A DNA stretch of 62,811 bases from a virus. The notes beneath the pieces are model-generated. The model was not told the origin of the DNA. It ran no database searches and saw only the letters and a list, made by a program, of their open reading frames with translations. The stretch's first letter is position 1. Every line of letters starts with the position of its first letter. Positions 3,455-29,605 of this stretch are shown one piece after another. The DNA lies in IMG/VR virus record IMGVR_UViG_3300047175_000146, positions 1 to 62,811 of that record; one strand, written 5' to 3'. Position numbers and translations under genes: made by a program.

Positions 3455-3471
3455 ACCAGCAGGAGCAAACC

Positions 3472-4017: not shown

Positions 4018-4205
4018 CGCGCCTGACCACGCAGCGGCGCAAGGAGCTGCCCCAGGACGAGTTCGCACTGCCGGGCGGTCGATATCCCATTCCCGATGAG
4101 AGCCACGGCCGCGCGGCGCTCTCCATGGCGCATTACGCGAGCCCGGCCGAGCAGGCTCAAATCAAGCGCAAGGTGCACGAGAAATTTCCCGACATCGGAA
4201 AGTGA
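4014..4205 (+). CDS. Small hypothetical protein
   Basis: ATGA start/stop overlap with the upstream gene; 63 aa containing 'LPGGRYPIPDESHGRAALS'. Confidence 0.5.
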   Translation: MTRLTTQRRKELPQDEFALPGGRYPIPDESHGRAALSMAHYASPAEQAQIKRKVHEKFPDIGK

Positions 4206-4214
4206 GGATGAGCC

Positions 4215-6552: not shown

Positions 6553-6561
6553 GGGGTACCC

Positions 6562-7449
6562 ATGCTCGGATACAGCTACGCCCAACTCTACGCCGCCCTG
6601 CAGTCCTGGCCGCTCAAACAATCAGCGACCTATCTTGCCAATTTGAACCGCATGATCTTCATGGGCGAATTGCGTCTGATCCGCGACATCCAGTTGGACA
6701 TCTTCGACGTCAACGACAGCGTCGCCTTGAGCAGTGGCCAGACGGTGCTCGCCAAACCTTTGGGGTCGCAGGCGATCAGTTTTACCGCCGGCATCGCGCC
6801 CGGCGCCACATCGGCGACGCTCGCGAGCGCTTGGAACGGCAGCACCGGGGTGTACGTGTTGACCTTTTCCGACAACGAAGTGCAAGCCGTGACTTTGACC
6901 TCGGGTCAGACCACGGCTAACTGGCCCCTGCCCATGGCCGATGCGGTCAGCGCGAGCGCCACGGTCGCGCCGCAATTCGTGGTCGAGCAGTCCCTGCAGG
7001 TGGTGTACTCGGGCGTCAACCGGATCGTGCGCAAGCGTTCCTGGGAGTTCGTGCAGCTCTACCAACAGGCCGCCGCGGGCCAGCCTGCGTACTACTGCGA
7101 TGTCGCCACCAGCAACTGGCAGATCGCGCCGGCCTGCGATGCCAATGCCACCGCGATGCTGCGCAAGTACACGCGCCGGCCCATCTCGATCGTCGCGGCC
7201 GGCAGCAGTTGGCTCGGCGATACGGTGGGAGAGGTTCTGTTCGCGGCCTGCCTGATGGAATCGGAAATGTTCTTAAAGGCCGACGATCGCTACAACGACA
7301 TGAAAATAAAATATCAGGTCGAACTGCTGCCCGCCGCGCGCGCCGAGCTCGTAGCCGCCTGGCGCAAGGGCGCCTATGCGCCGTTGCAGGCGATTGCCAC
7401 GCTGCCGCAGCCGGCGACCGCCCCGCCCCCGGCGCAGGCGCAAGGTTAA
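6562..7449 (+). CDS. Virion structural protein (adaptor/tail-proximal type), carries the shared 'GATSxTL..W.G.SG...FSD.E' module
   Basis: 295-aa ORF in the tail block with start ATG 6562 after 'gaggggtaccc'. The module lies at 6802..6966. Confidence 0.5.
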   Translation: MLGYSYAQLYAALQSWPLKQSATYLANLNRMIFMGELRLIRDIQLDIFDVNDSVALSSGQTVLAKPLGSQAISFTAGIAPGATSATLASAWNGSTGVYVLTFSDNEVQAVTLTSGQTTANWPLPMADAVSASATVAPQFVVEQSLQVVYSGVNRIVRKRSWEFVQLYQQAAAGQPAYYCDVATSNWQIAPACDANATAMLRKYTRRPISIVAAGSSWLGDTVGEVLFAACLMESEMFLKADDRYNDMKIKYQVELLPAARAELVAAWRKGAYAPLQAIATLPQPATAPPPAQAQG

Positions 7450-7458
7450 GGAGGGCCC

Positions 7459-9114: not shown

Positions 9115-9308
9115 ACGATAAAGTCGTAGACCTCGACACCTTTCGCCCCAAGAGGAAAGAGCTCGTGCTCGAGTGCAAGTGCGGCAGCCAACTGTTCTAC
9201 CTGCATTTTCGCGAAAAAGGACTGACCGGCGCCATTGAGTGCCGCCTGTGCGGCGAGATTCCCCTCGATAAGTGTTGGGGCTATGCGCAGCGCGACGATA
9301 TCGACTGA
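9111..9308 (+). CDS. Small Cys4 zinc-ribbon protein (TTG start, uncertain)
   Basis: In frame with ORF 8679..9308. TTG at 9111 overlaps the upstream stop. Contains 'CKCG...CRLCG'. Confidence 0.35.
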   Translation: MNDKVVDLDTFRPKRKELVLECKCGSQLFYLHFREKGLTGAIECRLCGEIPLDKCWGYAQRDDID

Positions 9309-11446: not shown

Positions 11447-11449
11447 TCG

Positions 11450-14730: not shown

Positions 14731-15270
14731 ATGTGCAAAAAGGGTCCGGCAATGATCGACTTCATGGTGCTGTCCGCGCCTCGGTCTGCTTCCACGTGGG
14801 CGGCCAATTGGTTGACCACGCACCGGACGCTGTGTTTGCATGACCCGCTGCTTGAGCATACCGTCGAGGAGCTCGACGGCATTCCCCACGCACAGGCGAC
14901 ATTCGGCATTTCCTGCACCGCGTTGCCTTTGTGTCACGCCTGGGTCGATGCACACGCCGCGCGCAAACTCGTTCTACATCGCGATATCGCGGACATCGAT
15001 GCCTCGCTCAAAAGGATCGGCCTGACCGCGCTGTCGCGCCATTGGACGGGCGCGCTCGAACGGCTGCGGGGCATGCACGTGCACTACCTCGATCTGTTCC
15101 AGGCGTCGAGCGCCAAGCGCATCTGGGAATACTTGACCGAAACCGATTTCGATCCGGGTCGCCATCGGCATTTGACGCGCATGCGCGTGACGCCCTATCA
15201 CCCCAAGGTTCCCATCGATGCCGAATGCGCGCGCGATTTCAGGCGACGCATCGAGAGGGCCTTCGCATGA
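14731..15270 (+). CDS. Sulfotransferase-like protein
   Basis: The N-terminal 'FMVLSAPRSASTWAANWL' resembles the 5'-PSB P-loop (PRSGST) of sulfotransferases. 179 aa; an alternative start is at 14752. Confidence 0.5.
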   Translation: MCKKGPAMIDFMVLSAPRSASTWAANWLTTHRTLCLHDPLLEHTVEELDGIPHAQATFGISCTALPLCHAWVDAHAARKLVLHRDIADIDASLKRIGLTALSRHWTGALERLRGMHVHYLDLFQASSAKRIWEYLTETDFDPGRHRHLTRMRVTPYHPKVPIDAECARDFRRRIERAFA

Positions 15271-15923
15271 GCCGCACACGTATCGCGCAGCACGACGTCA
15301 AGGCGGATCCGCCCATTCGCATTTTGAAGAAAGGCGTGATTGTTCAGCCGCTGATTCAGCAGATCGAGGCCAATCCGCAGCTCTGGGACCAGAATGTGTT
15401 CCGCAACTACGAGCCGGGCTATACGTCCGAGAATCCGCATGAGCGTGTCTCCGACATCATCGTACGTTTCAATCATTGGAAGAACTGGACCGGCGATCGG
15501 CGTGCGTTCAACGAGCGGCACGAGTCGGTGTGGTGGGCACCTTATGAAAAACTCACGTATCTGAAACCGCTCGTCTTCGATCTTGCCCGCTGGTTCTACG
15601 CCGAAAGCATCGGCATGGTGTTGATCACGCGCATACCCCCCTTCCATGAGGTCAAACCGCACGTCGATGCCGGCTGGCACGCGCGCCACTATTTGAAGTT
15701 CGCCATTTCCTTGAAAAGCGCGCCTCGGCAGAAATTCTGTTTCGAGGGCACCGAGATCGAAACGCAAGTGGGTGACCTGTTCGCGTTCGACAACTCCAAA
15801 CCGCACTGGGTCACCAATCCCACCGATCAGGAGCGCTGGACATTGATCATCTGCCTGCGCTTGGAGCAGCCGATCTGCCGAAATTGCGAATGGCGCGGCC
15901 CTGATGTGCCGAACTTGAACTAG
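15267..15923 (+). CDS. Aspartyl/asparaginyl beta-hydroxylase (LpxO)-family Fe(II)/2OG dioxygenase-like protein
   Basis: ATGA overlap start. 'VKPHVDAGWHARHYLKFAISL ... GDLFAFDNSKPHWVTNPTDQERWTLII' matches the H-x-D ... FD..xxH..N....R..L cupin pattern of that family. Confidence 0.7.
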   Translation: MSRTRIAQHDVKADPPIRILKKGVIVQPLIQQIEANPQLWDQNVFRNYEPGYTSENPHERVSDIIVRFNHWKNWTGDRRAFNERHESVWWAPYEKLTYLKPLVFDLARWFYAESIGMVLITRIPPFHEVKPHVDAGWHARHYLKFAISLKSAPRQKFCFEGTEIETQVGDLFAFDNSKPHWVTNPTDQERWTLIICLRLEQPICRNCEWRGPDVPNLN

Positions 15924-15933
15924 GGGAAGGATC

Positions 15934-16953
15934 TTGCCGGCAGGATGGGTATCAGCAGGAGTGGCAGCGGTGGGCGTGGCATCGAACATCGCCAGCAACC
16001 AATCGGCGCAATCGGCCGCAAACAAGAACAACGCCAACTCGCAAAATCTCGCCGGCGCGCAGAATCAGATGTTGAGCCAAGCCGAGAGCGTCGCCAACCA
16101 GCCGTTCGTGGCGTACACCGGGCAGCTCACGGCACCGATGTCGGCGAACGAGCAGCAGGGCAACGATTTGGCCGCCAGCGTCGCCAACAACCAGGTGGCG
16201 CAGGGCGATGTGCAGGCGGGCACCAACTTGGTCGGCCAGGTCGCCAACAACGGGTTCAGTCAGCAGACGATTGAAAACTACATGAACCCGTACACGCAGG
16301 ATGTGACCAACAATGCGATCACGGCGGCCAACCGCAGCTACGCCCAAAATCTCTCGGCACTCAATGAAAAATCGGCCCAATCCGACGCGTTCGGCGGTTC
16401 CGGCAGCGCTCTGCAGCGGGGCGAGCTCGCCGGGCAAAATCAATTGAATGTCGCCAACATCACGGCCACCAATGATTCCAACGCCTATGACGCGGCAGTC
16501 AAGGCCTGGCAAGCCGACAATCAAACCAAACTGTCAGCCGCACAGGCCTACAACGCCGCCGGCCAGGACATCACCAACATGAACTCGACGCAGATCTCCG
16601 ATTTGATGAAAACCGGCGGCGTCGCTCAGGCCATCAGCCAGACCAATCTTGCCAATCAGTACGGCCAGTTCATGCGCCAGCAGGGCTGGAGCGCCAATCA
16701 GTTAGGTTCGTTGATTCAAGCGGTCGGTACGGCCAAGGGCAATACCAATGTCGCGGCCGCGCCGCAGTCGAACGTCGCCAACCAACTGCTCGGCTTGGGA
16801 TCGACGGTGGCGGGCTTGTTTGGCGGCTCGAGCGGTACCTCGGATCCGTCGTTGAGCGATGCCGACATGTCGAGCCTATCCAGCAATGCACTGTCGAGCA
16901 CGGCACCGGCCTTGGACTCGAGCACCGTGTCCGGACTCACGTCCACGGTCTGA
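15934..16953 (+). CDS. Internal-virion/ejection-type protein (Gln/Asn/Ala-rich)
   Basis: 339 aa with a hydrophobic N-terminus 'WVSAGVAAVGVASNIA' and Q/N/A-rich low complexity. First of three consecutive genes ending in the giant protein. The TTG start is uncertain. Confidence 0.5.
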   Translation: MPAGWVSAGVAAVGVASNIASNQSAQSAANKNNANSQNLAGAQNQMLSQAESVANQPFVAYTGQLTAPMSANEQQGNDLAASVANNQVAQGDVQAGTNLVGQVANNGFSQQTIENYMNPYTQDVTNNAITAANRSYAQNLSALNEKSAQSDAFGGSGSALQRGELAGQNQLNVANITATNDSNAYDAAVKAWQADNQTKLSAAQAYNAAGQDITNMNSTQISDLMKTGGVAQAISQTNLANQYGQFMRQQGWSANQLGSLIQAVGTAKGNTNVAAAPQSNVANQLLGLGSTVAGLFGGSSGTSDPSLSDADMSSLSSNALSSTAPALDSSTVSGLTSTV

Positions 16954-16963
16954 GGAACCACCC

Positions 16964-18367
16964 ATGGCCGCCGGCGCAACCCTAGACACTGAAGACGACC
17001 AGGACGCGATCGACAACGTCCAGCCACCGGCGATGACGTTGCCGACCGCACCGCCCGCCGCGCAGGCCTCCGCCGGCGGCACGGCGCCGGGCTCGGCCGC
17101 CCCTGCATCACCCACTCCTGCGTTGGCGCCGGCCACGGCCGCGACCAACGGCATCGAGGGTCAGCCGCAAAAGAAGCAGATCCCGACCGGACCCAAAGTC
17201 GAGTTCGATCCGAAGAAACTCGCCAAGGTGCAGACCCCCGAGGACCTGGTCGATGCCATGCGCCCGAAATCGCGCACCGACTACCTCGACTGGTGGGAAA
17301 AAACCCACGGCGACATCGACGAGAAGTATGACAACCTGCAAAAACAGCTCGGTCAACGTCCCGAAGATGAGGGCCTGACCCGTTCCGAGAAGTTCGCGGC
17401 GCTGCTGCAGTTTGGCCTGCACTTGATGAAGAACTCAAGCACGCCGACGCCCAATCAGGGCAGCGTGCTGACCGGCACCTTGAGCGATGAATACGATGCG
17501 ATGCAAAAGGCGCATCAGGACAACGTCGCGGCCCAGCAGAAGGATTACGACACGCAGGCCAATGCCATCGAGCAGGGGCGCCAGGCGGCGCTCAAGGGCA
17601 TCGGCACGCCGGCGCAGGCCATGGCCGGACAGCAGGCATCCGACAAGGCGTATGCGCAAGAGACAAAAGACAACGCCGCCGCGCTCAAAAGCGCCAAAGA
17701 CGTGCTGACCGACAAGCAATCGGCGTTGGGTCCGGTCACGTACTCGACTGATCCGAAAGGCAACCTCGTGTCCTTGGTGCGCGATCCCAAGACGGGTGCA
17801 ACTACCGCAGAACCGGTGCTAACGATCGACGGCAAACCCTACCAGGGCAAGGTGCTGGGGCGCGAAACGGGCTCCGGCGTCGAGAAGGGCGATCCGGCCG
17901 CCGTCAAGACGCAGAAGTATCTGATGTCGTTGGGGTATACGGAAAGCGATGCCACCAACATCGCCATGAAACCGAAAACCAACAACCCGAACGCCGACTG
18001 GATCAGCGTCTACAAATCGGCGATCCAGGCCAACGGCGGCGATGACGCGTCCGCCAAGCACGTCGCTGACATTGCGATCTTGAACAACTATGGCGCCGGT
18101 GCGCTTGCCCAGGTCAACAAACCCCTCGTGCCCTCGAGCGGCAAGTACGCCCCGCCGCAGCCGCCCGACAGCGTCGTGCAGGGCATGAAGCCGGGCATGG
18201 TGTATGACTTTGGCGACAAGGGTAAATGGATGAAAGGCTTGGACGGCAAGCCGGTGCTGGTGTCGCGCCCGGGCGGGCGCACGGTCTTGAACAACCGCAA
18301 CGCCATACAAAACCCGGATGCCGCGCTGCCCACCGGCGGCCTGCCCGCACCCAACGCGAGTCCATAG
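16964..18367 (+). CDS. Internal-virion/ejection-type protein
   Basis: ATG 16964 after 'gaggaaccaccc'. 467 aa with an acidic/Pro-Ala N-terminus and a charged helical middle, directly upstream of the giant protein. Confidence 0.5.
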   Translation: MAAGATLDTEDDQDAIDNVQPPAMTLPTAPPAAQASAGGTAPGSAAPASPTPALAPATAATNGIEGQPQKKQIPTGPKVEFDPKKLAKVQTPEDLVDAMRPKSRTDYLDWWEKTHGDIDEKYDNLQKQLGQRPEDEGLTRSEKFAALLQFGLHLMKNSSTPTPNQGSVLTGTLSDEYDAMQKAHQDNVAAQQKDYDTQANAIEQGRQAALKGIGTPAQAMAGQQASDKAYAQETKDNAAALKSAKDVLTDKQSALGPVTYSTDPKGNLVSLVRDPKTGATTAEPVLTIDGKPYQGKVLGRETGSGVEKGDPAAVKTQKYLMSLGYTESDATNIAMKPKTNNPNADWISVYKSAIQANGGDDASAKHVADIAILNNYGAGALAQVNKPLVPSSGKYAPPQPPDSVVQGMKPGMVYDFGDKGKWMKGLDGKPVLVSRPGGRTVLNNRNAIQNPDAALPTGGLPAPNASP

Positions 18368-18370
18368 GCG

Positions 18371-21300
18371 ATGGCCGCCGGCTGGATAGCGCAGGGTCCG
18401 CCTCAACCCGCGGGTCCCGCCAACGATGCGCCCGTGGGCAATGCGCCGCCCGGCAATACAATCGCCGGCGATTGGCAATTGGTGGGTCAGCCCGAGCCCT
18501 TGGATCCCACCGCGATCAAACCGGTCGCCAAGAACGCCATCGAGGACACGCGCTCGATCTACCAGCAGGCGCGGGATTTTGTCTTTGGCCACGATCCAGA
18601 CGCCGATGACACCGATCAGGTGCGAAAGCCGGGCGTGCTGCCCTCTATCGTGGCCGGCGCGCAAGACTTGGATCGCGGCACCAAGGACTTTGCCACCGCC
18701 GGCCCTGATTGGTCGACATTGGCCAAAGCCTACCCGCATATTCTGGCCGCCCAGGCCGAGCGGGTCGGTGCCGGTGTCCAAGAGGCGACGGGTGCGAGCC
18801 AGACCCAAAGCGCCGAGCTGCAAATCGCCGCGCTCAACGTACTGCCGCAGGCCGCGGCGCGCCTGAAATCCCAAGTGCCGGGCCAATCCGGCATCGTGCC
18901 GGTGGAACAACTCGCGCAAGATCCTCTGGTCGAGAAGACCGCCCGGGGTTTGGGGCTCGACCCGGTCGTGTTTGCGTCGCAATGGTCGCAGTACGCCGGC
19001 ATGAGTCCGGAGAAGCAGGCCGATGCCATGGCCGACGCTCAAGCCACATTGGCCGACGGTGCCAAGAACAAAGAGTTGGGCGCCAACTCGCGCTATCAGG
19101 CATGGGCGGACGAGAGGGCGTGGGAACCCTCCGACCTGCTCAATGGCAAGCTCGACCCCTGGACGTTGAAAAGCGTCGCCTTCAACACCGCGACCGCCTT
19201 GCCGGCAGTGGTGGCGACCGCCGGGGCGACTCTGGCCGGTAGCGCGGCGGGCGGCCCTGCCGGCGGTCTGATTGCCGGCGCCACGGTCGGCAGCGCGATT
19301 TTTGGTCCTCAAGGCTACGCCAACGCCAAGGACGCCATAGACGCACAGTCGAGCCGGCTGCTCGAAAAGGCGGATGAGCTTGATGCGGCGGCGCCGATCG
19401 GAAGCCGCCGCGCTTTGAATCCGGCCGCCGCTCTGTTACGCCAACAGGCGGCCGACCTGCAAGCCAGTTCCGACAAGATCGCGATGACCGCCGGCATGCT
19501 GACCGCCGTGGCGTCGGCCGCCGGTGGTGCGCCGCTATCCGCAGTGCTCGCGCGCGCGCCCGGTGGCCAAGCCATCCTCAACCGCATTGTCGGATCAGCC
19601 ATCGCTCAAACCGCCGGCGGCCGCGTGGCCGGCACGGCCATCGCCAACGGCGCCGGCGCCGTGGTGCAGGCCAGCCTGCAAAAGGCGATCGACGTCGGCA
19701 TCGTCCATGAGGATCAGTCGTTGGCCGATGCGCTCAAGGACATCGCCGCCGCAGGCGTCATCGGCGTCACCACCGCGCTTCCCATTGCCGGTGCGCACGA
19801 AATGCTCATTGGCGGCCCACGGGCACAAGCAAAGCGGGACTTCGACACCGAGCAGTTTGCCGCGCAGGCACAACGCATGGCGGCGGGCGGTGCGCTCGGC
19901 GGTGAGCCATCGGCTGCATCGCAGGAAGACTATCCGGGCTACCGCTGGGATCCAAACATCCCCAACGGTACCGATCGCAATGGCAATGCGGTTTACGGCC
20001 GCTTTGTGCCGACCGGGACGAATGGCGCGAACGCTGAGACGACAGCGGCTTTAACTGGACCGCAACAGCCAACCGGTGAGACGAATGCCGATGGCGGTGA
20101 ACCGCTGGGGGGTGCTGGTGGCGGCGGCGCGGCCGGTGCCAGGCAGGCCTATACCGACAAGATGACGGCGCTCAACACGGCCGCCGCCAAGGCTGAAAAG
20201 CGTTCCGACATCACGCTGCAGCCGGAGGAAGAAGGCTGGTCCATCCACGTCAACGGCGAACCGGTGGCCACGTTCGACACGGCCGCCAATGCGCGCGCGG
20301 CGTTGGCGAGTGCCAGAAAACTGGTCGGTACCGCGCCCAAAGTGAACCCGTCGTCGAGCGCATCTGCCGCAACGGCAGAGGCCGATACCGACCAAGGCCA
20401 GTCTGGCGCGCCTCAAGCGCAGACAGAATTCCCACAAAATCCCCCCTCCGAAGACGCCGCCGGCACTAACGCGCCCGCCAAACCCACCGCGGCCGCCCCT
20501 GCGTCGGGCGATGCGAATTTGGACGACCTCGAGCACACGCAGCAGATCGATGTACAGCCCGAGACCGATCGGCGCCAGGACACCGATTTGCGCGCGCGCT
20601 TCGATGCCATGACGCCGGAGCAGAAGTTCGCGGCCGCGTATGCGCACGAGCTGACCGGCATTCCAAACCGGCGCGCGTACGTCGATTCGCCCAAGAAGCC
20701 GGCGCAGGTGTCGATAGACGTCGACTCGCTCAAATGGGTCAACGACAACATGGGGCATCCGTCCGGCGATGCCTACTTAAAGGCGGTCGCCACCGCGCTG
20801 CATCAGGCGTCCGGCGGCAACGCCTATCACATCTCCGGCGATGAGTTCGTGGTGCAAGCCGACAGTCCTGAGCACGCGCAAGCCATCATGGCGGCCGCCA
20901 AGGCTCGCCTCGCCGATGCGACGCTGACTTTCGAGCACCCGGACGGGCGCACCATCACCTTGAAAGGGATAGGAGTCTCGCATGGCACAGGCCAATCTCT
21001 TGAAGAAGCCGATTCCCGGCTCGCTCAAAACAAAGCAGACCGGGAGCAATCCGGCCTCCGCGCAGGTCGCGGCAGCGAACCGCCAGGAACAAGTCGCGGG
21101 TCTGCTCAAGCAGGGTTACCAGCTGAAGAGCGTGGGCCTGCCACCGGCGGCGGACTATCAGGTGGCCGGCAGACCGAAGTCCTAGGCCAGCGCGTCCAAG
21201 CGCCAGCGGTCCCCACCCAGGCACAAGCCGCCGCCGGCAATTACTTCAAACCGACGGTCGAATGGCACGGCCTGCCGATCAAGATCGAAAACGAGCCGGG

Positions 21301-24300
21301 TTCGCAGCGCTCCTTCACCTATCCCAACGGCAATCCGGGGCAACGCACCATGCTCGCCCACTACGGCTATTTTCCCGGCCGTGAAGGCGCTGATGGCGAT
21401 GGCGTCGATGTGTATATCGGGCCTGCCAAGAGCGCGGACAGCGGCAAGGCCTATGTCATCGATCAGTTGCGGCCAGAAGGTGGCGCGTTCGATGAGCACA
21501 AGGTCGTGGTAGGCGTCGGCAGTGCCAAGCAGGCCAAAGAACTCTACCTCAAGCACTACCAGGAAGGTTGGCAGGGGTTCGGCGCGATCACGGCCATGGA
21601 TCACGAGGCCTTGGCCGACTGGCTCGCGCACGGCGATCTAACCCAGCCGGTCGCCTGGAAACCAGTCATCGAGCGTGGCCAGGGGCCCGATGCCCGCTAC
21701 GACTCCATTCTCGAATATCTCGCCCGCCACAAGCGGGGTCTCGACAGCACGGAGGCCGAAGCTCAGGGGATCGATCCGGCCGACATGAAGCTCGCCGCGG
21801 CGCACGTCGGGATACGGCGCGCTTTCCGCAAGGGCGGCATGGGCTTCGATCAGGCTGCTGAACATCTCCATGAGGAAGGGTATCCGGTCACGGATGAGCA
21901 CGGCAACTACTCGCCCAATGTGCTGCTCGAGCGCCTGGCGGACGAGCTCGCCGGCATCAAGCATTTCTCGAGCCATAACCAGACGCACACCGAGGAACTG
22001 GCGCGCGCCGAGCACGAGCGCATCGTCAACGTGCAGGCGGAACTCTCGCAGCGGCAGATCGACCGCTTGAGCGCCGAGCAGATCGAGGCACGCATGGCCG
22101 CGCTCGAAGCGGAGCAGGAGCGGCTTGCGATCCAAGCCGAACGGACCGCAGGCGACGCCGAGGACATGAATTCCATCCCGTTCTCCAAGCGTCAGCGGGA
22201 CCTTTTCGGCGAGCAAAATCACGTCAAGAACGAGATCAAGAAGCTTCAGATCGCCAAAGACAAGAAACGCAACAGCGGCCAGGAATCTCTCGAGACCGGG
22301 CGCCCGGATGACCTGTTCAGCCAGGCACGCCAGCAGATGGACCTGACCGACATCAAGGAGCCACCGACCGAGTACGCGCTCGCCGACAAGGCGAGCAAAA
22401 GGCCGATCAGCAACCAGTTGGATATTTTTGCCCCACGCGCGGTGACGCCGGCGGCCGCGGCGGTCAAGAAATCGGCCGCCATCTTGAGCCAGAAAACCAA
22501 ACTGGTGACGGTCGGCACGTTCCGCTCAGGACACGACAAAATAACCACTTGGCAGCAAGCCGCGCACGTGCTCGCGCCGCTGCGCAAAGGATCGCAGGAA
22601 ACCATGGCGGTTCTGGTCCTCGACAAGAACGGCAAACCGCTGTCGGTGATCCGCGGCGGCATGGGCACGATCAATGGCGCGAGCGTCGAGTACTGGTCAT
22701 TGAGCGGCGCGGTGGCTTCGATCCCAGGCGCTGATTCGGTGTATTTGGTTCACAACCATCCGTCCGGTTCGCTGGTTCAAGGAGAGGCCGACAACACGGC
22801 GACCGCCAAACTGACCGATCTGCTCGATGCCATGGGGCTCAAAACGCACGGCATGATCGTGCTGACGCCGAATGGCGCTAAAGCGTCCTTCGTTCCCTCC
22901 GATCCCAACCTGTTGGGTCACCAAGGTATACCGGGCGAGGTGGCGCCGGGCGGTAAGACGCGCGCGTTGGTGCCGGTTGCCGAACGGCGCTACGCCGCCG
23001 GCAACCGGCAAACAGGGCTGCCAGAAGGGGTGATTGGAACGCAATTGGCCAATCCCCGTGGCACGCGCAAAGTCGTCGAAACCGTCGCGCAGCACACACC
23101 TTCCGGTGTGCTGCTGCTCAACAATCATTATCGCGTCGTGGGTTTGTTGCCGATGGCCGACGCCGCCAAAGCCGCGTTGCGCTTGGGTTCCGATAACACA
23201 GGAGCCTGGGATCTGCTGCGCGCGCTGCACGAAGCCAACGCCAACAACATCATTCCGTATGGTGTTTCCGAAGACGCAGTCAAAAACGTGGTGCGTTTTG
23301 CGCGCGCCGCGGCCCTGAATGCGCCGGATGCCTTCGTCAAAAACGCGACCGGCGCGTGGAACAGCATGCAGGAGTCCGGCTTCGCTCCCGCCGGCGACAC
23401 CTTCAAGCGCACCAAATCGCAGAGCGGCGTCGGCATGCCGGTGGCGGACGTCAAAGCCATCGTCGACAAATTGCTCGGGCATTTTCGCAACAACCCCACC
23501 GATGTGGTGGTGGTGCAAAGCGCCGCGGACCTCGACAAGATCCCTGAGCTCGCCGGGCGCACCGATCCGGACGCGATCGGCCTCTTGGATCCGCGCACCG
23601 GCAAGATCTACCTGGTCGCGGATGAGATGCACAGTCCCGAGCACGTGGCGCTTACCCTGGCGCACGAGTACGTCGTGCACTACGGCCTGCGGGCGCAGTT
23701 TGACGACCGTCAAAACGCCGAGTATCAGGCAATACTTTCCGGAGTATTCAAAGCCATGCCCGCCGAGGTGCGTGCCCGGTTCGAGCAGGCCTTCCCGGGC
23801 CAGGATTTTGCATCCTCGACCTTGAACCAACGGCTGGTGGCGGCGGAGGAAGCGCTGGCTTACGCCGAGGAGCGGTATGCCAACGGCGCGGACATCTCAA
23901 AGCCCGTCCAAGGATTGCTCGAGCGACTGTACACGCTGCTGCGCGATTGGCTGCGCAACAAGTTGGGGTTGGCGCCTAAATTCGACAGCCTGTTCGTCCG
24001 CCGCACGCTCGATGACCTGCGCACGTTTTTGAAGAACTCCCGCAATCGTCCTGAATCGCAGCGCAGTGATGAAGCGCCGGCGGCCGCCAAGCCCCAAGAC
24101 ACGTTCTATTCCGCGCTCGCGCGCGCGGTGGATGCGGCAAAGCGGGACAAAGGCACCGGGCCTGAGTGGGAAGCCACGTTGCGCAACATGACGGGCGTCA
24201 AGGCCGAAGAGATGCAATGGCTGGGATTGAAGGATTGGCTTGCGGGCCGCGGCCGCGTGACCAAGCAGGAAGTTGCCGAGTATGTACACGCTCATCGGGT

Positions 24301-27300
24301 GCAACTGGGTGAAGTGAGGTATGGCGGTAACGACCAGCGCGACGTGTACCTCAACGAGATCCGCTCGCACGGGTTTGATGTCACTGAAGAGTCCGGCGGG
24401 CATCCGAGATTGATTTTTCCGGAAGATTGGGAAGAGGAAGACCCACCGCCGGCCGTCACGCGCGCGTATCACGAACTCGAAGATTTGATGGCGGGCGGCG
24501 ATCCACCGCAGTACCAGGAATGGGCGACGCCGGGCGGGCAGAACTACCGCGAGATGCTCTTTACTTTGCAGAGCAAGCCTTACGGCGTGGATTTGCGCAA
24601 ATCGATCTTCGATAAGTACGAGCCGCGCATCAGACAGATGTACGACAAAGCGATGGACATCTCGCGCACCGACACGCAGGGCGACCTTGATCGTGCCGCC
24701 GCGGCGCGCGAGGTGGATCGTTTGAGAGATGAACGCAATATCGAGGCGGACCGAATCTTCACCGTGCCGGAGCCGTACATTTCGCCGCATTGGGAAGTCG
24801 ACAATGTGGTGGCGCATGCGCGCGCCGATGACCGCTTCGGTCCGCACGGCGAGCGCGTCTATCACATCCACGAGATCCAATCCGATTGGCATCAAGCGGG
24901 TCGAAAGCATGGTTACGTCAGCGGTTTCGATTTAGCCAGACTCAAGGCGGCCTCCGCAGGCGATCCAAGCAACAGGTTGAATCCTAACGCCCCGCCCGAC
25001 GCGCCGTTCAAAACCAGTTGGCCCGAGCTCGCCTTCAAGCACATGCTGCGCGAGGCGGTCGAGCGCGGCTATGACGCCATCTCTTGGGACACCGGTTCGA
25101 CCAACGCCGGGCGCTACAACATGCAGCGGGTGGCAGACAAGATCAGCGTCGCCATCACGCCCAACAAGGAACCGCCGGAATATCACGTGCGCGCCACCAA
25201 GGGTGGCACCGTCGTGCACCAATCCTCTGATTTGAACGAGGAGCAACTGGCGGAACTGTTGGGCAAAGACATGGCGCAAAAGGCGATCAGCCGCTTGGGC
25301 GTCGCCAACGCCGTGTCGACCGATTTTTTGGGCGATGACTTGAAAATCGGCGGCGCGGGCATGCGCGCGTTCTACGACGGCATCCTGCCCAAAAAGGTCA
25401 ACGCGCTGGTCAAGAAGTGGGGTGCGTCGGTCGAAGCGGCCACGCTACCGAGCAAACCGGGGGGTCGCGCGACGATCGAACAGATCGACGGCGGCCATTG
25501 GCGCGTCACCGACCGCGACGGCCGGCATTTCGAATTCGATGATTTCCGCGACGCGCGCGAGTTTCTGGCCGCGGAATCCAAACACAATGCCGCCGGGCCC
25601 GAGGGCGGCCTGCCCGTGCACCTGGTGCGCATCACGCCGGCCATGCGCGATTCGGTGCTCGAAGGTTTGCCGATGTTCAAGAAAAAGGGCAAGGGCAAAG
25701 GTGGTGCGCCGCCGGCCCCTCGAGCTCCTGGACCGATCCGCAAAGGCTATGAAGTCGCTCGCACCGTCGCGAGCTCGATCCCCAACAACGAATTCGTAAT
25801 GGCGTTTCGCCGCATCTTGGCGCCGGCCGGCGTCTCCGAGTTCTCCAGGTCCGCGGCGCTCCTCACGCGCGAGAACTTGGGCGAACTCGCCCAGGCCAAA
25901 ACCCAAGCGCTACACGACCTCGAAAGCTACGCCAAAGCCTTCGACCAGTTGCCCATTCCCGACCGCTATGACTTCATTGACGCCATGGAAACCGGCCAAT
26001 CGCAGCCGCATGCGCCCCTGCAGCGAGCCGCCGACACCATCCGCGGCATGCTCGATGACACGCGCGAGGAGGTGCAGGCTCTCGGCGTCGGGGCGCTCGA
26101 AAACTGGATCGAGAACTACTTCCCGCACATCTGGCAGGATCAAAAGGCGGCATCGAAAGTGTTCCGGCAGATCTTCGGCCGCCGGCCGCTCAAAGGGCCG
26201 GCATCGTTCTTGAAGCAGCGCACCATTCCGACCACGCGCGAGGGTTTGGAGAAGGGACTGCAGCCGATCTCGAGCAACCCTTTGATTCTCGCTTACGCCA
26301 AGATCGTCGAGATGAAGCGTTTCATTGCCGGCGTCAAGCTCATGCAGAAATTCAAGGATGAAGGCCTGGCCGTATTCTTGCCGGCGCACAAGATGATGCC
26401 GGAAGGCTGGGCCGAGATCGAAGATGCGGTTGGCCGGGTGCTGCAATGGAGTGAGGCGGAAGGCGGCTTCGTGATCCGCGGCAAGTACATCATGCCGCAG
26501 GATGCCGCGCGCGTGATCAACAACCACTTGAGCGCATCGGCGCTGGCGAACTTTTTGCCGGCGCAGCTGTTCCGGGTCGCCAGCAACGCCGTCAACGCGC
26601 TGCAGCTTGGCTTCTCAGGGTTTCACTTGGGGTTCACGACCTTGGACGCCATCGTTTCCAAGAACGCGCTCGGCATCGAACGATTGTTGCACGGTGAACC
26701 GGTCAGGGCGGCCGCAACGTTCCTCGAGGCCAACGGCGTGATCACGGGTCCCATCATGAACCTGGCGCGCGGTTACAAACTGCTGAAAGCGTATACCAAC
26801 ATCTCGGGGGCGACGCCGGAAATGCGTCAACTGGTCGAGGCGCTGCAGGCCGGCGGCGGGCGCGTGTCCATGGACATGTCGTTCGCCGCGGCACGTGGGA
26901 TTTCGCCGTTCAAGGGCACCGGTTTTGCAACGCTCGCGGGAGAGGTCAAAGGGGCGCTGACACTGCCGTCGGGACGCATGGCCGAGCTCGGCAAGGTCGT
27001 CGGCGGTTTCCCGCGCGAATATGCGACGCGCCTGTGGCGGGATTTGCAGGCCATGGTCCACGAGATGCAGTGGCCGATCCTGACCGTGCCGCTCGAGATC
27101 GCCGGGCGCATCACGCGCGCATCGACGTCGGTGATCATGGAGCACATCGTGCCGATGCAAAAGCTCGGCGTGTTTTCGGACCTCGCCAGCGACTGGCTGC
27201 GCCGCAACCCGCAAGCCGATCCGGTGGCCATGCACGAGGCCATGCAGCGCATCTGGGATTCGGTCGACAACCGCCTGGGCGAAATGGTCTACGACAACGT

Positions 27301-28396
27301 GTTCTGGAACCGCACCTTCAAGGACGTGGCGCACATGATGGTGCGCGCGGTGGGGTGGAACTTGGGCACCGTCCGCGAGCTCGGGGGCGCGGCCATCGAC
27401 GTCGTCAAACTGCTCGACTACATGGCGCGCGGCGCGCCACCCGAGCCTGCGGGTACAGGCCTCACCAAAACGGCGCAGGCGCGCATGGACTACGAAGCGT
27501 CCAAATCCACCCTGACGCGCATCGCCGAGAAGGCCGGCCATCGCATCACATACACCCTGGCCCTGATCGCCACCACGATGCTGCTCGGCGCCATTGCGAC
27601 CAAGCTCATGAGCGGCCAGGGTCCTCAAGAGATCAAGGATTATTTCTTCCCGTGGACGGGGCGCAAAACCAAGTACGGCACCAAGGAACGCATGTCGATG
27701 CCGACCTACACCAAGGATTTGTATGAGTACGGCACCATGCCTGTGCAAACGCTGATCAACAAGGCCAACCCCATTTTTGGGATCATGCATTCCATTTATG
27801 CCAACGAGGACTTCTACGGCAACCCCATCCGCCATTCGGATGCGGATTTCTGGACCCAGATGAAGGAGGGCGCCTCGTACGCGGCCCGCGAGACGCTGCC
27901 ATTTTCCTACCAGGGCGGCAAGCAGTACTTGAGCGCGCGCAACCAGGAGTTGGGCGATGCGAGCGGCGATCTGAAACGTCAAGTGCTGACCATCGCGCCG
28001 TACGCCGGCTTCGGTCCCGCACCGGCGCGCATCACCTCACCCGACCAGATGGAGCGCTATCAGCAGGAGGAGGAAGAGCGCGGTTGGGTGCGCGGCCTGC
28101 AACGCCAGTACAAGGCGGCGCTCGAGCGCCACGATGAGCCTGAAATAAAGCGCCTGCGGGCCGAGCTCGCCGCGGCCAAGCACAAGGCCAAGCAGACGCA
28201 GGGTGCGATCAAACAGGACCGTTCCAAAGCGCGCGAACAGGCTGACAAAATCGGTGCACTCATCCAAGGCAAATCGCGCGATCAAGCCGTCGCGGCACTC
28301 AAGGACGCCGGCCTGCCGGCTTTTGCGCAATTGTGGAATGCGATGTCCGATAATTTGCGGCCGCGGGTGGCTGAAAGACTAGGAGCCTATGCGTGA
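18371..28396 (+). CDS. Giant (3,341 aa) polyvalent virion/ejection protein
   Basis: Uninterrupted 10,026-nt ORF. Motifs are readable for GGDEF, a pyrophosphatase-like barrel, RadC/JAB (HNHPSG), zincin HExxH, an 'EIQSDWHQ' polyvalent-associated block, and a C-terminal membrane/coiled-coil core. It sits between internal-virion-type genes and the lysis cassette. Confidence 0.85.
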   Translation: MAAGWIAQGPPQPAGPANDAPVGNAPPGNTIAGDWQLVGQPEPLDPTAIKPVAKNAIEDTRSIYQQARDFVFGHDPDADDTDQVRKPGVLPSIVAGAQDLDRGTKDFATAGPDWSTLAKAYPHILAAQAERVGAGVQEATGASQTQSAELQIAALNVLPQAAARLKSQVPGQSGIVPVEQLAQDPLVEKTARGLGLDPVVFASQWSQYAGMSPEKQADAMADAQATLADGAKNKELGANSRYQAWADERAWEPSDLLNGKLDPWTLKSVAFNTATALPAVVATAGATLAGSAAGGPAGGLIAGATVGSAIFGPQGYANAKDAIDAQSSRLLEKADELDAAAPIGSRRALNPAAALLRQQAADLQASSDKIAMTAGMLTAVASAAGGAPLSAVLARAPGGQAILNRIVGSAIAQTAGGRVAGTAIANGAGAVVQASLQKAIDVGIVHEDQSLADALKDIAAAGVIGVTTALPIAGAHEMLIGGPRAQAKRDFDTEQFAAQAQRMAAGGALGGEPSAASQEDYPGYRWDPNIPNGTDRNGNAVYGRFVPTGTNGANAETTAALTGPQQPTGETNADGGEPLGGAGGGGAAGARQAYTDKMTALNTAAAKAEKRSDITLQPEEEGWSIHVNGEPVATFDTAANARAALASARKLVGTAPKVNPSSSASAATAEADTDQGQSGAPQAQTEFPQNPPSEDAAGTNAPAKPTAAAPASGDANLDDLEHTQQIDVQPETDRRQDTDLRARFDAMTPEQKFAAAYAHELTGIPNRRAYVDSPKKPAQVSIDVDSLKWVNDNMGHPSGDAYLKAVATALHQASGGNAYHISGDEFVVQADSPEHAQAIMAAAKARLADATLTFEHPDGRTITLKGIGVSHGTGQSLEEADSRLAQNKADREQSGLRAGRGSEPPGTSRGSAQAGLPAEERGPATGGGLSGGRQTEVLGQRVQAPAVPTQAQAAAGNYFKPTVEWHGLPIKIENEPGSQRSFTYPNGNPGQRTMLAHYGYFPGREGADGDGVDVYIGPAKSADSGKAYVIDQLRPEGGAFDEHKVVVGVGSAKQAKELYLKHYQEGWQGFGAITAMDHEALADWLAHGDLTQPVAWKPVIERGQGPDARYDSILEYLARHKRGLDSTEAEAQGIDPADMKLAAAHVGIRRAFRKGGMGFDQAAEHLHEEGYPVTDEHGNYSPNVLLERLADELAGIKHFSSHNQTHTEELARAEHERIVNVQAELSQRQIDRLSAEQIEARMAALEAEQERLAIQAERTAGDAEDMNSIPFSKRQRDLFGEQNHVKNEIKKLQIAKDKKRNSGQESLETGRPDDLFSQARQQMDLTDIKEPPTEYALADKASKRPISNQLDIFAPRAVTPAAAAVKKSAAILSQKTKLVTVGTFRSGHDKITTWQQAAHVLAPLRKGSQETMAVLVLDKNGKPLSVIRGGMGTINGASVEYWSLSGAVASIPGADSVYLVHNHPSGSLVQGEADNTATAKLTDLLDAMGLKTHGMIVLTPNGAKASFVPSDPNLLGHQGIPGEVAPGGKTRALVPVAERRYAAGNRQTGLPEGVIGTQLANPRGTRKVVETVAQHTPSGVLLLNNHYRVVGLLPMADAAKAALRLGSDNTGAWDLLRALHEANANNIIPYGVSEDAVKNVVRFARAAALNAPDAFVKNATGAWNSMQESGFAPAGDTFKRTKSQSGVGMPVADVKAIVDKLLGHFRNNPTDVVVVQSAADLDKIPELAGRTDPDAIGLLDPRTGKIYLVADEMHSPEHVALTLAHEYVVHYGLRAQFDDRQNAEYQAILSGVFKAMPAEVRARFEQAFPGQDFASSTLNQRLVAAEEALAYAEERYANGADISKPVQGLLERLYTLLRDWLRNKLGLAPKFDSLFVRRTLDDLRTFLKNSRNRPESQRSDEAPAAAKPQDTFYSALARAVDAAKRDKGTGPEWEATLRNMTGVKAEEMQWLGLKDWLAGRGRVTKQEVAEYVHAHRVQLGEVRYGGNDQRDVYLNEIRSHGFDVTEESGGHPRLIFPEDWEEEDPPPAVTRAYHELEDLMAGGDPPQYQEWATPGGQNYREMLFTLQSKPYGVDLRKSIFDKYEPRIRQMYDKAMDISRTDTQGDLDRAAAAREVDRLRDERNIEADRIFTVPEPYISPHWEVDNVVAHARADDRFGPHGERVYHIHEIQSDWHQAGRKHGYVSGFDLARLKAASAGDPSNRLNPNAPPDAPFKTSWPELAFKHMLREAVERGYDAISWDTGSTNAGRYNMQRVADKISVAITPNKEPPEYHVRATKGGTVVHQSSDLNEEQLAELLGKDMAQKAISRLGVANAVSTDFLGDDLKIGGAGMRAFYDGILPKKVNALVKKWGASVEAATLPSKPGGRATIEQIDGGHWRVTDRDGRHFEFDDFRDAREFLAAESKHNAAGPEGGLPVHLVRITPAMRDSVLEGLPMFKKKGKGKGGAPPAPRAPGPIRKGYEVARTVASSIPNNEFVMAFRRILAPAGVSEFSRSAALLTRENLGELAQAKTQALHDLESYAKAFDQLPIPDRYDFIDAMETGQSQPHAPLQRAADTIRGMLDDTREEVQALGVGALENWIENYFPHIWQDQKAASKVFRQIFGRRPLKGPASFLKQRTIPTTREGLEKGLQPISSNPLILAYAKIVEMKRFIAGVKLMQKFKDEGLAVFLPAHKMMPEGWAEIEDAVGRVLQWSEAEGGFVIRGKYIMPQDAARVINNHLSASALANFLPAQLFRVASNAVNALQLGFSGFHLGFTTLDAIVSKNALGIERLLHGEPVRAAATFLEANGVITGPIMNLARGYKLLKAYTNISGATPEMRQLVEALQAGGGRVSMDMSFAAARGISPFKGTGFATLAGEVKGALTLPSGRMAELGKVVGGFPREYATRLWRDLQAMVHEMQWPILTVPLEIAGRITRASTSVIMEHIVPMQKLGVFSDLASDWLRRNPQADPVAMHEAMQRIWDSVDNRLGEMVYDNVFWNRTFKDVAHMMVRAVGWNLGTVRELGGAAIDVVKLLDYMARGAPPEPAGTGLTKTAQARMDYEASKSTLTRIAEKAGHRITYTLALIATTMLLGAIATKLMSGQGPQEIKDYFFPWTGRKTKYGTKERMSMPTYTKDLYEYGTMPVQTLINKANPIFGIMHSIYANEDFYGNPIRHSDADFWTQMKEGASYAARETLPFSYQGGKQYLSARNQELGDASGDLKRQVLTIAPYAGFGPAPARITSPDQMERYQQEEEERGWVRGLQRQYKAALERHDEPEIKRLRAELAAAKHKAKQTQGAIKQDRSKAREQADKIGALIQGKSRDQAVAALKDAGLPAFAQLWNAMSDNLRPRVAERLGAYA
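20630..21060 (+). other. GGDEF (diguanylate-cyclase-type) domain, active-site variant SGDEF, no RxxD I-site
   Basis: The sequence reads 'HELTGIPNRRAY...QVSIDVDSLKWVNDNMGHPSGDAYLKAVATAL...AYHISGDEFVVQ...GIGVSHGTG.SLEEADSRLAQNK'. SGDEF is at 20834..20848. The residues 5-9 upstream are ASGG, not RxxD. Confidence 0.75.
21235..21650 (+). other. Inorganic-pyrophosphatase-like domain (tentative)
   Basis: 'GADGDGVDVYIG' resembles the PPase D-x-D-x-x-D signature, followed by 'FDEHKVVVGV' and 'AKELYLKHY'. Confidence 0.35.
22530..22890 (+). other. RadC-like JAB/MPN domain
   Basis: 'ETMAVLVLDKNGKPLSVIRGGMGTINGASV...VYLVHNHPSGSLVQGEADNTATAKL'. HNHPSG is at 22751..22768. A second, degenerate JAB-like stretch ('VLLLNNHYRVVGLLPM') follows. 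Confidence 0.8.
23560..23760 (+). other. Zincin-like metallopeptidase motif region (HExxH)
   Basis: 'IYLVADEMHSPEHVALTLAHEYVVHYGL'. HEYVVH is at 23663..23680. Confidence 0.5.
24101..25680 (+). other. Large-polyvalent-protein-associated block
   Basis: 'TFYSALARAV...GPEWEATLRNMTGVKAEEMQWLGLKDWL', 'RVYHIHEIQSDWHQAGRKHGY' (24863..24895), 'GGAGMRAFYDGILPKKVNALVKKWG' and 'LPMFKKKGKG' recall blocks seen in giant phage/conjugative-element proteins. This is from memory only. Confidence 0.45.
25740..28396 (+). other. C-terminal ejection-core region with TM helix and coiled coil
   Basis: 'GRRPLKGPASFLKQRTIPT' (26176..26222); hydrophobic helix 'ITYTLALIATTMLLGAIATKLM' (about 27545..27610); charged coiled coil 'ERYQQEEEERGWVRGLQRQYKAALERHDEPEIKRLRAELAAAKHKAKQ'. 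Confidence 0.5.
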
Positions 28397-28734
28397 GCCA
28401 GTTACCGGAATTCGAGGGCCAGGGAGTAATCGATTTGGCATTGGGGGCGCTGGTGGGCATCATTAGCTGGCTTGGCAGCCGCCTCTGGGGCAAAGTCGAC
28501 ACGATGCAGGAAGTGCAGGCCAATCACGCCAAGAGTTTCGTAGAACGCCACGAAATGCAGAAGCATTTGGATGATTTGCGCGTGGAGGTGCAGCGCGACA
28601 TCGATACCGCGGCCGCCACCGCCATGCGCATGCACGCGGAGAACCTGTCACGGTTCGACAAAATCGACAGTTCGATGAACCGGCTGCACGACCGGATCGA
28701 CGGCGCCACGCGGCGCGGCAACGAGCAGCGCTGA
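28393..28734 (+). CDS. Membrane-anchored coiled-coil protein (i-spanin- or holin-like)
   Basis: GTGA overlap with the giant ORF. The N-terminal TM 'VIDLALGALVGIISWLGSRLW' is followed by a charged helical region. It is adjacent to the endolysin. Confidence 0.5.
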   Translation: MSQLPEFEGQGVIDLALGALVGIISWLGSRLWGKVDTMQEVQANHAKSFVERHEMQKHLDDLRVEVQRDIDTAAATAMRMHAENLSRFDKIDSSMNRLHDRIDGATRRGNEQR

Positions 28735-29228
28735 TGTCCGCTGCACCGGATGACCTGACGCAGCACCTCGAGGCGCAGTTGACCGTGGAGGAGGGCCAAA
28801 CCAATTTTATCTATGACGATGCCGCGGGGCCGGTGCCATTCAAGGCCGGCATGACGCTCAAGGGCAACTTGAGCGCCGGCACCGGTATCAACCTGATGAG
28901 CGGCTTCGACGCCCCCGAGTTGGCCTTCATCGAAAACAACCGCATCGCCAAAGCACGCACGGCATTGAGTCAATTCGCTTGGTATACCGCCCAGGACGAG
29001 GTGCGCCAAGCGGCGCTCGCGGACCTCGCGTTCAATCTGGGCGTCGGCGGCCTCCTACACTGGCCGCATTTCTTGTCTTACATGGCCGACAAGGCTTATC
29101 CTGCCGCGGTCGATGAAATCGTGACCAACGCGGTGTGGGTGGCCCAGGTGCATCCCGCCCGGGCGAACCGCATCGCACAGATGATCGCAACCGGCACTTG
29201 GCCAACGGATATCAAGGTGGCAACGTGA
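28734..29228 (+). CDS. Endolysin, T4-lysozyme (GH24)-like muramidase
   Basis: 'LTVEEGQTNFIYDDAAGP...LSAGTGINL' fits the E-x8-D-x(n)-T catalytic layout, and 'ALADLAFNLGVGGLLHWPHF' fits the helical lobe. Confidence 0.75.
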   Translation: MSAAPDDLTQHLEAQLTVEEGQTNFIYDDAAGPVPFKAGMTLKGNLSAGTGINLMSGFDAPELAFIENNRIAKARTALSQFAWYTAQDEVRQAALADLAFNLGVGGLLHWPHFLSYMADKAYPAAVDEIVTNAVWVAQVHPARANRIAQMIATGTWPTDIKVAT

Positions 29229-29605
29229 GCACGACCAGCCAAAAGGCCGACATGCTTCTCGCCTGGGCGCAGATCCTGCTGGCGTTCCTGTTCACCGCCG
29301 GCATCTTCTCGCTGGTGTTCTTCCTGCTGCTTTCCAAAAATCCGCCCACTGGTTCGGCGCTGACCATCGTCGGCGGCGTCATCAGCGCGCTGATCACTGT
29401 GCTGACACTGCAGCAAAATTACTTCTTTGCGCGGCAGCGACCCCCCACGTTGCCCGATCCGGCTCCTTCCGCCCCCACACTTACCGGAGTATTCACCAAT
29501 GGACCTTCTGGCAGCCCTTCTGGCAACGACACAACCACTACCACGCTATCTATCCAACCTGCTCCTCCTGGTGCTCCTAACGCTGCTGGTGGCCGTAGCG
29601 CTTAG
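29225..29605 (+). CDS. Holin-like membrane protein with two TM helices
   Basis: The GTG start overlaps the endolysin stop. TM helices are 'LLAWAQILLAFLFTAGIFSLVFFLLL' and 'ALTIVGGVISALITVLTLQ', followed by a Pro/Thr-rich tail. Confidence 0.5.
   Translation: MSTTSQKADMLLAWAQILLAFLFTAGIFSLVFFLLLSKNPPTGSALTIVGGVISALITVLTLQQNYFFARQRPPTLPDPAPSAPTLTGVFTNGPSGSPSGNDTTTTTLSIQPAPPGAPNAAGGRSA

Follow-up and report, generated by a model that had tools for sequence, protein, structure and literature searches.

A cysteine-free phage protein of 3,341 residues with exchangeable central cassettes: a polyvalent protein probably ejected with the DNA

What kind of protein occupies 16% of a phage genome, and is it made in the infected cell or carried there by the virion? 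The question is raised by the IMG/VR virus record IMGVR_UViG_3300047175_000146, of which positions 1 to 62,811 (62,811 nucleotides) were analysed as one stretch, here called the window. On its + strand, at 18371..28396, lies an open reading frame (ORF) of 10,026 nt that runs from ATG to stop through 3,341 codons with zero internal stops, and whose product (3,341 aa, 359.6 kDa) we refer to as the giant protein. We suggest, with a probability of roughly 0.7, that it belongs to the phage-type polyvalent proteins and is packaged in the capsid and ejected with the DNA or just ahead of it. The complete absence of cysteine is the strongest indirect evidence for ejection; the position of the gene, the conservation of both ends of the protein and the exchange of its central domains among orthologues are the other observations to be accounted for.

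A cysteine-free gene between ejection-type and lysis-type genes

The terminal 127 bases of the window are duplicated (1-127 are identical to 62685-62811), and we therefore regard it as a whole genome, circular or circularly permuted, with a length of 62,684 bp. The giant ORF makes up 15.96% of the 62,811 window bases and 15.99% of the circle. An initial annotation had described an uninterrupted ORF of this length and share of the genome, and its coordinates and stop-free frame were verified; the positions of the motifs read from its translation also proved exact (ISGDEF at 821, GADGDGVDVYIG at 1006, HNHPSG at 1461, HEYVVH at 1765, EIQSDWHQ at 2168 and GMRAFYDGILPKK at 2330). Megablast of the giant ORF against cultured phages gave zero matches, and PADLOC found no defence-system family.

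The giant protein contains 0 cysteines in 3,341 aa, where the window's other ORFs average 1.23% (P ~1e-18). The same holds for the two genes that precede it. The first (15934..16953, +) encodes a Q/N/S/A-rich protein of 339 aa that is cysteine-free and matches phrog_4287 'DNA ejection protein' with an E-value of 1e-10. The second has no family match; its mechanically called ORF (16859-18367) overlaps the previous gene by ~95 nt, and the true start is likely the ATG at 16964 (M36), where the protein begins 'MAAGATL...', resembling the 'MAAGWIA...' of the giant protein, so that the gene would extend over 16964..18367 (+) and encode ~467 aa. All three cysteines of the longer ORF lie in the 35-aa extension before M36, and as this extension appears to be spurious we count three consecutive cysteine-free genes (15934-28396). 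Avoidance of cysteine extends to the relatives: homologues of the C-terminal core contain 8 cysteines in 102,985 aa and homologues of the adjoining module M, described below, 1 in 20,135 aa (counted in the A1 and A3 alignments, homologues P0001-P0142). Cysteine is likewise absent from the virion RNA polymerase (vRNAP), gp51 and gp52 of phage N4 and from gp33-35 of HTVC028P, whereas it does occur in the replication and tail proteins of these phages. In the ejection operons of Schitoviridae (N4-like phages) cysteine suppression is conserved, and it has been attributed to the passage of these proteins through the oxidising periplasm (PMC11445570). Cysteine avoidance could serve as a cheap marker in genome scans for ejected proteins outside Schitoviridae.

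The stop codon of the second upstream gene lies 3 nt ahead of the giant ATG. A P22-type virion structural (stabilization-like) protein is encoded further upstream. Downstream follows a lysis-type cassette (28393..29605, +), recognised by weak matches to phrog_462 and phrog_7 and by reading of the sequence; it encodes a 113-aa protein with an N-terminal transmembrane helix and a coiled coil, a 164-aa T4-lysozyme-like protein with the corresponding E...D...T motif and an overlapping 156-aa protein with two transmembrane helices. TerS and TerL come after this cassette, and the gene order around the giant ORF is repeated in locus L008. The placement proposed in the initial annotation, after internal-virion-type genes and before the lysis cassette, is thus borne out by a DNA-ejection PHROG on one side and lysis-type genes on the other. 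We suggest that 15934-16953, 16964-18367 and 18371-28396 form an ejection block in which the giant protein would come third and be the largest, and that it is most likely packed in the head and probably leaves by way of the tail, crossing the cell envelope as loosely linked beads.

Constant ends and an exchangeable centre

An exhaustive HMMER search with aa 1095-1904 returned 1,336 relatives, most of them 2,000-6,400 aa long. At least eight are intact, full-length orthologues colinear with the giant protein (P0143-P0149 and P0153; 3,154-4,786 aa) that come from independent assemblies, and one of them, P0147 (3,468 aa), is encoded on a 67-kb JGI contig, where its gene has the neighbours seen in the window. 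The orthologues keep both ends and swap their central cassettes. P0143 has no GGDEF domain, P0148 has its RadC block replaced, P0146 carries an insert of ~1,180 aa that includes LPD1, and in P0149 the RadC block has given way to ~1,700 aa including an AAA_34/Helicase_C_4 helicase. The layout is that of beads on a string, with a constant N-terminal region, a variable central cargo and a constant C-terminal part in which a putative HExxxH peptidase is followed by module M and by an all-alpha core.

The N-terminal constant region (aa 1-700; 18371..20470, +) is Ala/Gly-rich, with A+G reaching 38% per 100 aa, contains hydrophobic glycine-zipper-like stretches at aa 267-320, 376-394 and 457-476 and ends in low-complexity linkers; composition and hydropathy both agree with what had first been noted of these ~700 aa. 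The region is 45-50% identical in the orthologues P0143, P0145, P0147 and P0148, and phrog_10089 'DarB-like' matches part of aa 206-1099. A word-indexed search with aa 1-750 returned no other homologues, probably since low-complexity words swamped it.

At the other end, the C-terminal constant core (aa 2471-3341; 25781..28393, +) was scored in 150 homologues, the 120 listed all having E-values below 1e-100, and has 31 invariant columns. Its AlphaFold2 (AF2) model is all-alpha (pLDDT 84.7, pTM 0.84) and closes with a long-helix tail at the C-terminus, and a single transmembrane-like helix lies at aa 3058-3081, so that conservation, model and hydropathy agree on the ~870-aa core with a transmembrane helix that had been proposed, and the helical tail is found in the model. 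In a Foldseek search of BFVD, C-terminal pieces of viral entries named 'large polyvalent protein' matched the core with probability 1.0 and TM-scores of 0.44-0.49. Weaker matches (0.26-0.29) were a structural protein from Pseudomonas phage KPP25 and the Vibrio phage VP2 'internal virion protein'. Smaller members of the core family bear SLT, ART-PolyVal or GNAT domains N-terminally.

Module M (aa 1905-2445; 24083..25705, +) precedes the core and corresponds to the ~525-aa block with EIQSDWHQ that was first picked out by eye; it is a real conserved module, with 29 invariant columns, many of them polar, in 21 homologues. Its motifs are FYSA, LPGGxNYRE, HWDEPNVLAHxRxNDR, EEIQSDWHQAGRKKGY, VPDAPFK and GGEGMKGFYD, and its AF2 model reaches a pLDDT of 77 and a pTM of 0.67. 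A Pfam scan of the 22 alignment rows (query and 21 homologues) found no family for the module itself. Module M occurs in HTVC028P gp34, between annotated internal-protein genes, and in MW202675 near the portal gene with one gene between, and ART-PolyVal domains are found in relatives both of the module and of the C-terminal core. Module M and the core combine confident predicted folds with the lack of a Pfam model and of a solved relative, which makes them good targets for structural and functional work.

The centre holds the GGDEF, pyrophosphatase-like and RadC domains named in the initial annotation, and in a profile check all three scored above the Pfam cut-offs. The first, a GGDEF-type nucleotidyl cyclase domain (aa 755-897; 20633..21061, +), matches PF00990 at aa 777-891 (E 2.2e-11, 44.2 bits against a cut-off of 23.8) and TIGR00254 at 38.8 against a cut-off of 37.4. 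Its loop reads SGDEF (aa 822-826) where GG[D/E]EF is canonical. When aligned to the solved diguanylate cyclases 8wcn, 5m3c, 4zve and 3i5b, SGDEF falls on the GG(D/E)EF loop and the DxD, ND and GD residues are kept (DVDSLKWVND, GHPSGD). SGDEF is also found in most of the relatives shown of this cyclase subfamily, a few having G, and some SGDEF and AGDEF enzymes have been reported to be active. The inhibitory RxxD site, which is common but not universal five residues before the loop, is absent, the translation reading ASGG there.

The same SGDEF subfamily includes the 'GGDEF-like' proteins of Pseudomonas Yuavirus phages (e.g. Churro_042), which are ~38-41% identical to the cyclase domain and share with it a C-terminal GLRAxRGxxPP tail. 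They are ~156-aa single-domain proteins encoded among non-structural genes, and hence made after infection, whereas the domain of the giant protein is an InPase-paired cassette in a virion-type protein. In Pseudomonas phage Churro the stand-alone SGDEF protein (156 aa; L006, 1471-1941) is flanked by genes for a 'DNA binding domain protein' and an 'antirestriction protein', and the query that includes the cyclase domain had matches in about 330 Pseudomonas phage records.

The InPase domain, a family-I pyrophosphatase-like OB barrel (aa 950-1093; 21218..21649, +), matches PF18823 over almost its full length (aa 950-1085, profile positions 1-134 of 135, E 6.5e-42), with the acidic signature DGDGVD at aa 1008-1013 and DEHK further downstream. 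A second match is to the C-terminal portion of the Pa193 portal (PDB 9b41_L, E 1.2e-19), in which residues 529-765, holding the InPase-like part, are without density (disordered) in the virion map (PDB 9B41). InPase is present in 15 of the 18 GGDEF-bearing relatives, and the pairing is also seen in P0146, P0149, L008 and the contig L001, to which we return below. A further domain at aa ~1100-1235 (21668..22075, +) travels with InPase and is followed by a charged coiled-coil linker to ~aa 1340. With aa 956-1216 as query, tblastn matched a 'putative portal' of Achromobacter phage CF418P1 (11342-12283), placing this partner domain in a portal fusion, and in the search with aa 1095-1904 many representative matches of 570-790 aa cover query positions 8-150 at 50-66% identity.

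The RadC-like JAB domain (aa 1380-1510; 22508..22900, +) matches PF04002 at aa 1391-1507 (E 2.2e-13, 50.6 bits against 22.1), and in a 61-homologue alignment the Glu, HNH and Asp of the metal site E...HxH...SxxD are present in the giant protein, HNHPSG standing at 1461. RadC has been predicted to act on nucleic acids or nucleotides (PMC5512222). It had been suggested that a degenerate second JAB copy follows. A conserved domain does always follow RadC in the 61 homologues (aa 1530-1680; 22958..23410, +) and is without HxH; its likeness to JAB is weak, hhalign against the RadC alignment giving P 3.6e-4 and a probability of 37% over 98 columns. On this comparison a dead JAB-like partner of RadC is plausible.

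Next in the chain is a putative zincin-like metallopeptidase (aa 1690-1900; 23438..24070, +). The motifs HExxxH[YF]GL and AAEE are kept in the homologues shown of a 56-homologue alignment and read HEYVVH at 1765 and AAEE at 1824 in the giant protein. The position of the zincin motif first read there stands, but the motif is not of the canonical form, as three residues separate the Glu and the second His; a canonical HExxH zincin or Peptidase_M78 was rejected on the grounds of this motif and of the missing profile match. The metallopeptidases of polyvalent proteins include an HEXXXH clade with a Glu on the next helix as third ligand (Iyer et al., 2017; PMC5512222).

How these parts could work together can be pictured as follows. 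By analogy with the vRNAP of N4 and DEV, the constant ends may function in packaging, in passage and in association with the membrane, and the centre may be the payload, made up of the SGDEF cyclase, InPase, the RadC-type JAB metalloenzyme with its probably inactive partner domain and the zincin-like peptidase, which may cut the chain into separate effectors once delivered. The cyclase is predicted to make cyclic di-GMP (c-di-GMP) or a related cyclic nucleotide from nucleoside triphosphates and, lacking the inhibitory site, would be insensitive to feedback. Two molecules of pyrophosphate (PPi) arise per cyclic dinucleotide, and the neighbouring InPase could remove them and so drive the cyclase. 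Clearance of PPi has been raised as one role of InPase (Iyer et al., 2017), and the conserved pairing fits this idea, although the coupling of the two domains is something we infer.

A bolder and more doubtful extension is that the virion-delivered cyclase and pyrophosphatase flood the host with c-di-GMP or another cyclic nucleotide starting in the first seconds of infection, before any phage gene is expressed. If so, the flood may reprogramme the cell surface or motility and thereby exclude competing phages, or it may jam or decoy cyclic-nucleotide-based immunity, and with it the RadC/pseudo-JAB pair and HExxxH peptidase would also arrive ready-made as effectors, freed by self-cleavage. The giant protein would then offer a concrete and testable case of second-messenger synthesis delivered by a virion.

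Alternative readings

A number of observations weigh against an ejected, enzymatically active polyvalent protein. Packaging is deduced from cysteine content, gene position and the annotations of relatives. Cyclase activity requires two GGDEF domains to meet, and the loop is SGDEF, not GGDEF. The Ser of the RadC SxxD motif is Gly in the giant protein and Ser in most of the homologues shown. On the peptidase segment no Pfam model was found at E<=1, the assignment coming from the motifs. When searched with Foldseek against the PDB, module M gave nothing significant, its GNAT-like matches (E 0.03-0.5, TM-score ~0.1) being no evidence of kinship, and the core gave no match (best E 0.055). The C-terminal 1,400 aa of N4 gp50 compared with the core gave an hhalign probability of 0.1 and a BLASTP E-value of 0.64, and homology of the core to the encapsidation region of N4 vRNAP was accordingly rejected for want of sequence or profile similarity, as was homology to the 'DNA transfer protein' of phage DSL-LC04 (probability 0.6). 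In view of the missing homology to N4, DSL-LC04 or PDB ejection proteins, the analogy that we draw with known ejection proteins is positional and architectural. Finally, contig L001 (ENA ERZ25039491 contig_72160, 65 kb) contains at 2945-12886 a homologue that is colinear with the whole giant protein but has more than 10 frame changes. As intact orthologues exist elsewhere, we read this broken gene as an assembly error, probably in a long-read assembly with indel errors, though decay of the gene is possible. Gene callers break the L001 region up into six or more 'genes', of which one is annotated as GGDEF+InPase.

The alternative that best survives accepts packaging and ejection, and holds that the central 'enzymes' are inactive relics or folded beads, the protein acting as a trans-envelope conduit or plug for DNA like T7 gp15/gp16 and P22 gp7/16/20. 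We consider this unlikely. The three noncanonical active sites (SGDEF, Ser to Gly in the RadC SxxD, and HExxxH) speak for it, the central cassettes are dispensable in that P0143 is without GGDEF and P0148 without RadC, and the parts that stay constant are a hydrophobic N-terminus and a helical, transmembrane-bearing C-terminus. Yet divergent relatives conserve the cyclase residues that bind metal and substrate, the acidic InPase signature and the RadC His, His, Asp and Glu, which argues for selection on catalysis. SGDEF, being present in most of the relatives shown, looks like a family trait and not like decay, and HEXXXH is described as a regular clade of active-site form by Iyer et al. (2017).

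It is less probable still that the giant protein is not virion-borne at all and that it is a late cytoplasmic multi-enzyme protein, for instance for host takeover or superinfection exclusion, which merely adjoins the structural genes. The Yuavirus homologue of the cyclase, encoded among non-structural genes and beside an 'antirestriction' gene, shows that such a domain can be found in that setting, and the lack of homology to experimentally proven ejection proteins and the indirect case for packaging also speak for this possibility. It would leave hard to explain why cysteine is avoided over 3,341 aa and ~120,000 aa of relatives, a pattern that matches known ejected proteins. In addition, the giant gene is translationally close-coupled to two cysteine-free genes, one of which matches a DNA-ejection family, the fold of the core matches proteins annotated as internal virion or structural, and InPase is physically part of the portal protein in a solved virion.

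A role in a long-tailed phage, as tape measure or as some other baseplate or tail-length protein, was also considered, given the long, helical, Ala/Gly-rich sequence with hydrophobic segments, a neighbour gene annotated 'tail tape measure protein' in one relative and one related record labelled Myoviridae. A tape measure of 3,341 aa would imply a tail of ~0.5 micrometre. The scanned ORFs yielded no match to a tail tube, sheath or tail-chaperone family, the genome encodes a P22-type stabilization protein and has podoviruses as its nearest cultured relatives, and the domain content is of the polyvalent effector type; the reading was rejected as very improbable. An assembly or annotation artefact, e.g. 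fused genes or a chimeric contig, which could appeal to the many reading frames over which the homologous region of L001 is scattered, is scarcely credible and was rejected in the face of 10,026 nt without a stop, a GC content that is even along the whole ORF and the at least eight independent, intact, colinear orthologues of 3,150-4,800 aa, one of them checked in place on its 67-kb contig: the giant ORF is real.

Neighbouring genes and comparison with known systems

Two other genes of the window deserve mention. A 600-aa protein encoded at 4750-6552 (+) combines four CHB_HEX_C_1/Fn3_assoc repeats with a Laminin_G_3 (concanavalin-like) domain and is probably a receptor-binding fibre. Inside the structural module, at 14931-15923 (+), lies a gene for an Asp/Arg-hydroxylase or cupin (2OG-Fe(II) oxygenase-like) protein; a gene of the same type is found in the corresponding module of L001, L008 and phage DSL-LC04, which suggests a conserved virion-associated or virion-modifying oxygenase. 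A tblastn search of the ORFs at 474-2558 and 11450-13528 for portal or tail identity was uninformative. Roseobacter phages CRP-901/902, pelagiphages HTVC023P/027P and phage DSL-LC04 encode the terminases and stabilization proteins most similar to those of the window, and the closest relatives in culture are podoviruses that have a P22-like stabilization protein. DSL-LC04 has the 1,068-aa 'DNA transfer protein' in the corresponding slot, downstream of its stabilization protein.

The giant protein compares most directly with the polyvalent proteins surveyed by Iyer, Burroughs, Anand, de Souza and Aravind (2017, J Bacteriol; PMC5512222), in which many unrelated enzymatic domains are joined in one giant encoded among late or virion genes. 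The same is true here, the gene being flanked by a virion structural family, a DNA-ejection family, the lysis cassette and TerS/TerL. Domains specific to the class are also shared: the giant protein has InPase PF18823, its orthologues LPD1 and AAA_34/Helicase_C_4, and smaller members of the family ART-PolyVal, SLT and GNAT. The survey covers GGDEF, InPase, RadC, HEXXXH metallopeptidases and self-processing, and the novelty first claimed for the domain combination was therefore overstated, the more so as GGDEF-InPase-RadC recurs in several metagenomic orthologues. The order GGDEF-InPase-RadC-peptidase itself is not described in the survey. There, RadC is found only in proteins of conjugative elements and InPase only in the phage type, whereas the giant protein joins both in a phage-type protein. 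The GGDEF example of the survey, from an Acetonema prophage, is combined with a SWI2/SNF2 ATPase, a methylase, a metallopeptidase and an ART domain, as opposed to InPase and RadC here. Module M and the core also differ from the catalogued domains in having no Pfam model. With the polyvalent class, the domain types and the cysteine-free signature all published already, the giant protein is best seen as a large and well-preserved example that overturns no current idea and would not surprise a specialist in phage polyvalent or ejection proteins. The combination of constant ends with swappable payloads (cyclase, pyrophosphatase, RadC, helicase, ART, lysozyme) nevertheless amounts to a natural experiment on what packaging and passage require.

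The vRNAP of N4 and DEV (gp50/gp71) offers the closest architectural parallel. With ~3,400-3,500 aa it is similar in size to the 3,341 aa of the giant protein, and both have an N-terminus of hydrophobic helices, a central enzyme, a Zn-motif or metallopeptidase region and a large helical C-terminal domain. Both are also the last product of a small-medium-giant three-gene block, contain zero cysteine and are built as beads with flexible linkers; for the ~3,500-aa protein of N4, translocation as beads on a string has been proposed (PMC13434306). Unlike N4 vRNAP, the giant protein has no RNA polymerase, its presumed payload being the cyclase, pyrophosphatase and RadC, and its phage is not a schitovirus, given that the terminase and stabilization protein are nearest those of CRP-901/902 and HTVC023P/027P.

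With the ejection proteins of podoviruses (T7 gp14-16, P22 gp7/gp16/gp20, the DSL-LC04 protein and HTVC028P gp33-35) the giant protein shares the position after tail or stabilization genes, the depletion of cysteine and the hydrophobic or transmembrane segments, and with HTVC028P gp34 it has module M in common. It differs from these internal virion proteins in being three to ten times larger and in carrying what appear to be cytoplasm-directed enzymes, not a transglycosylase alone. If the giant protein is ejected as we propose, it would be a clear case outside N4 of a ~360-kDa protein that is threaded through a short tail.

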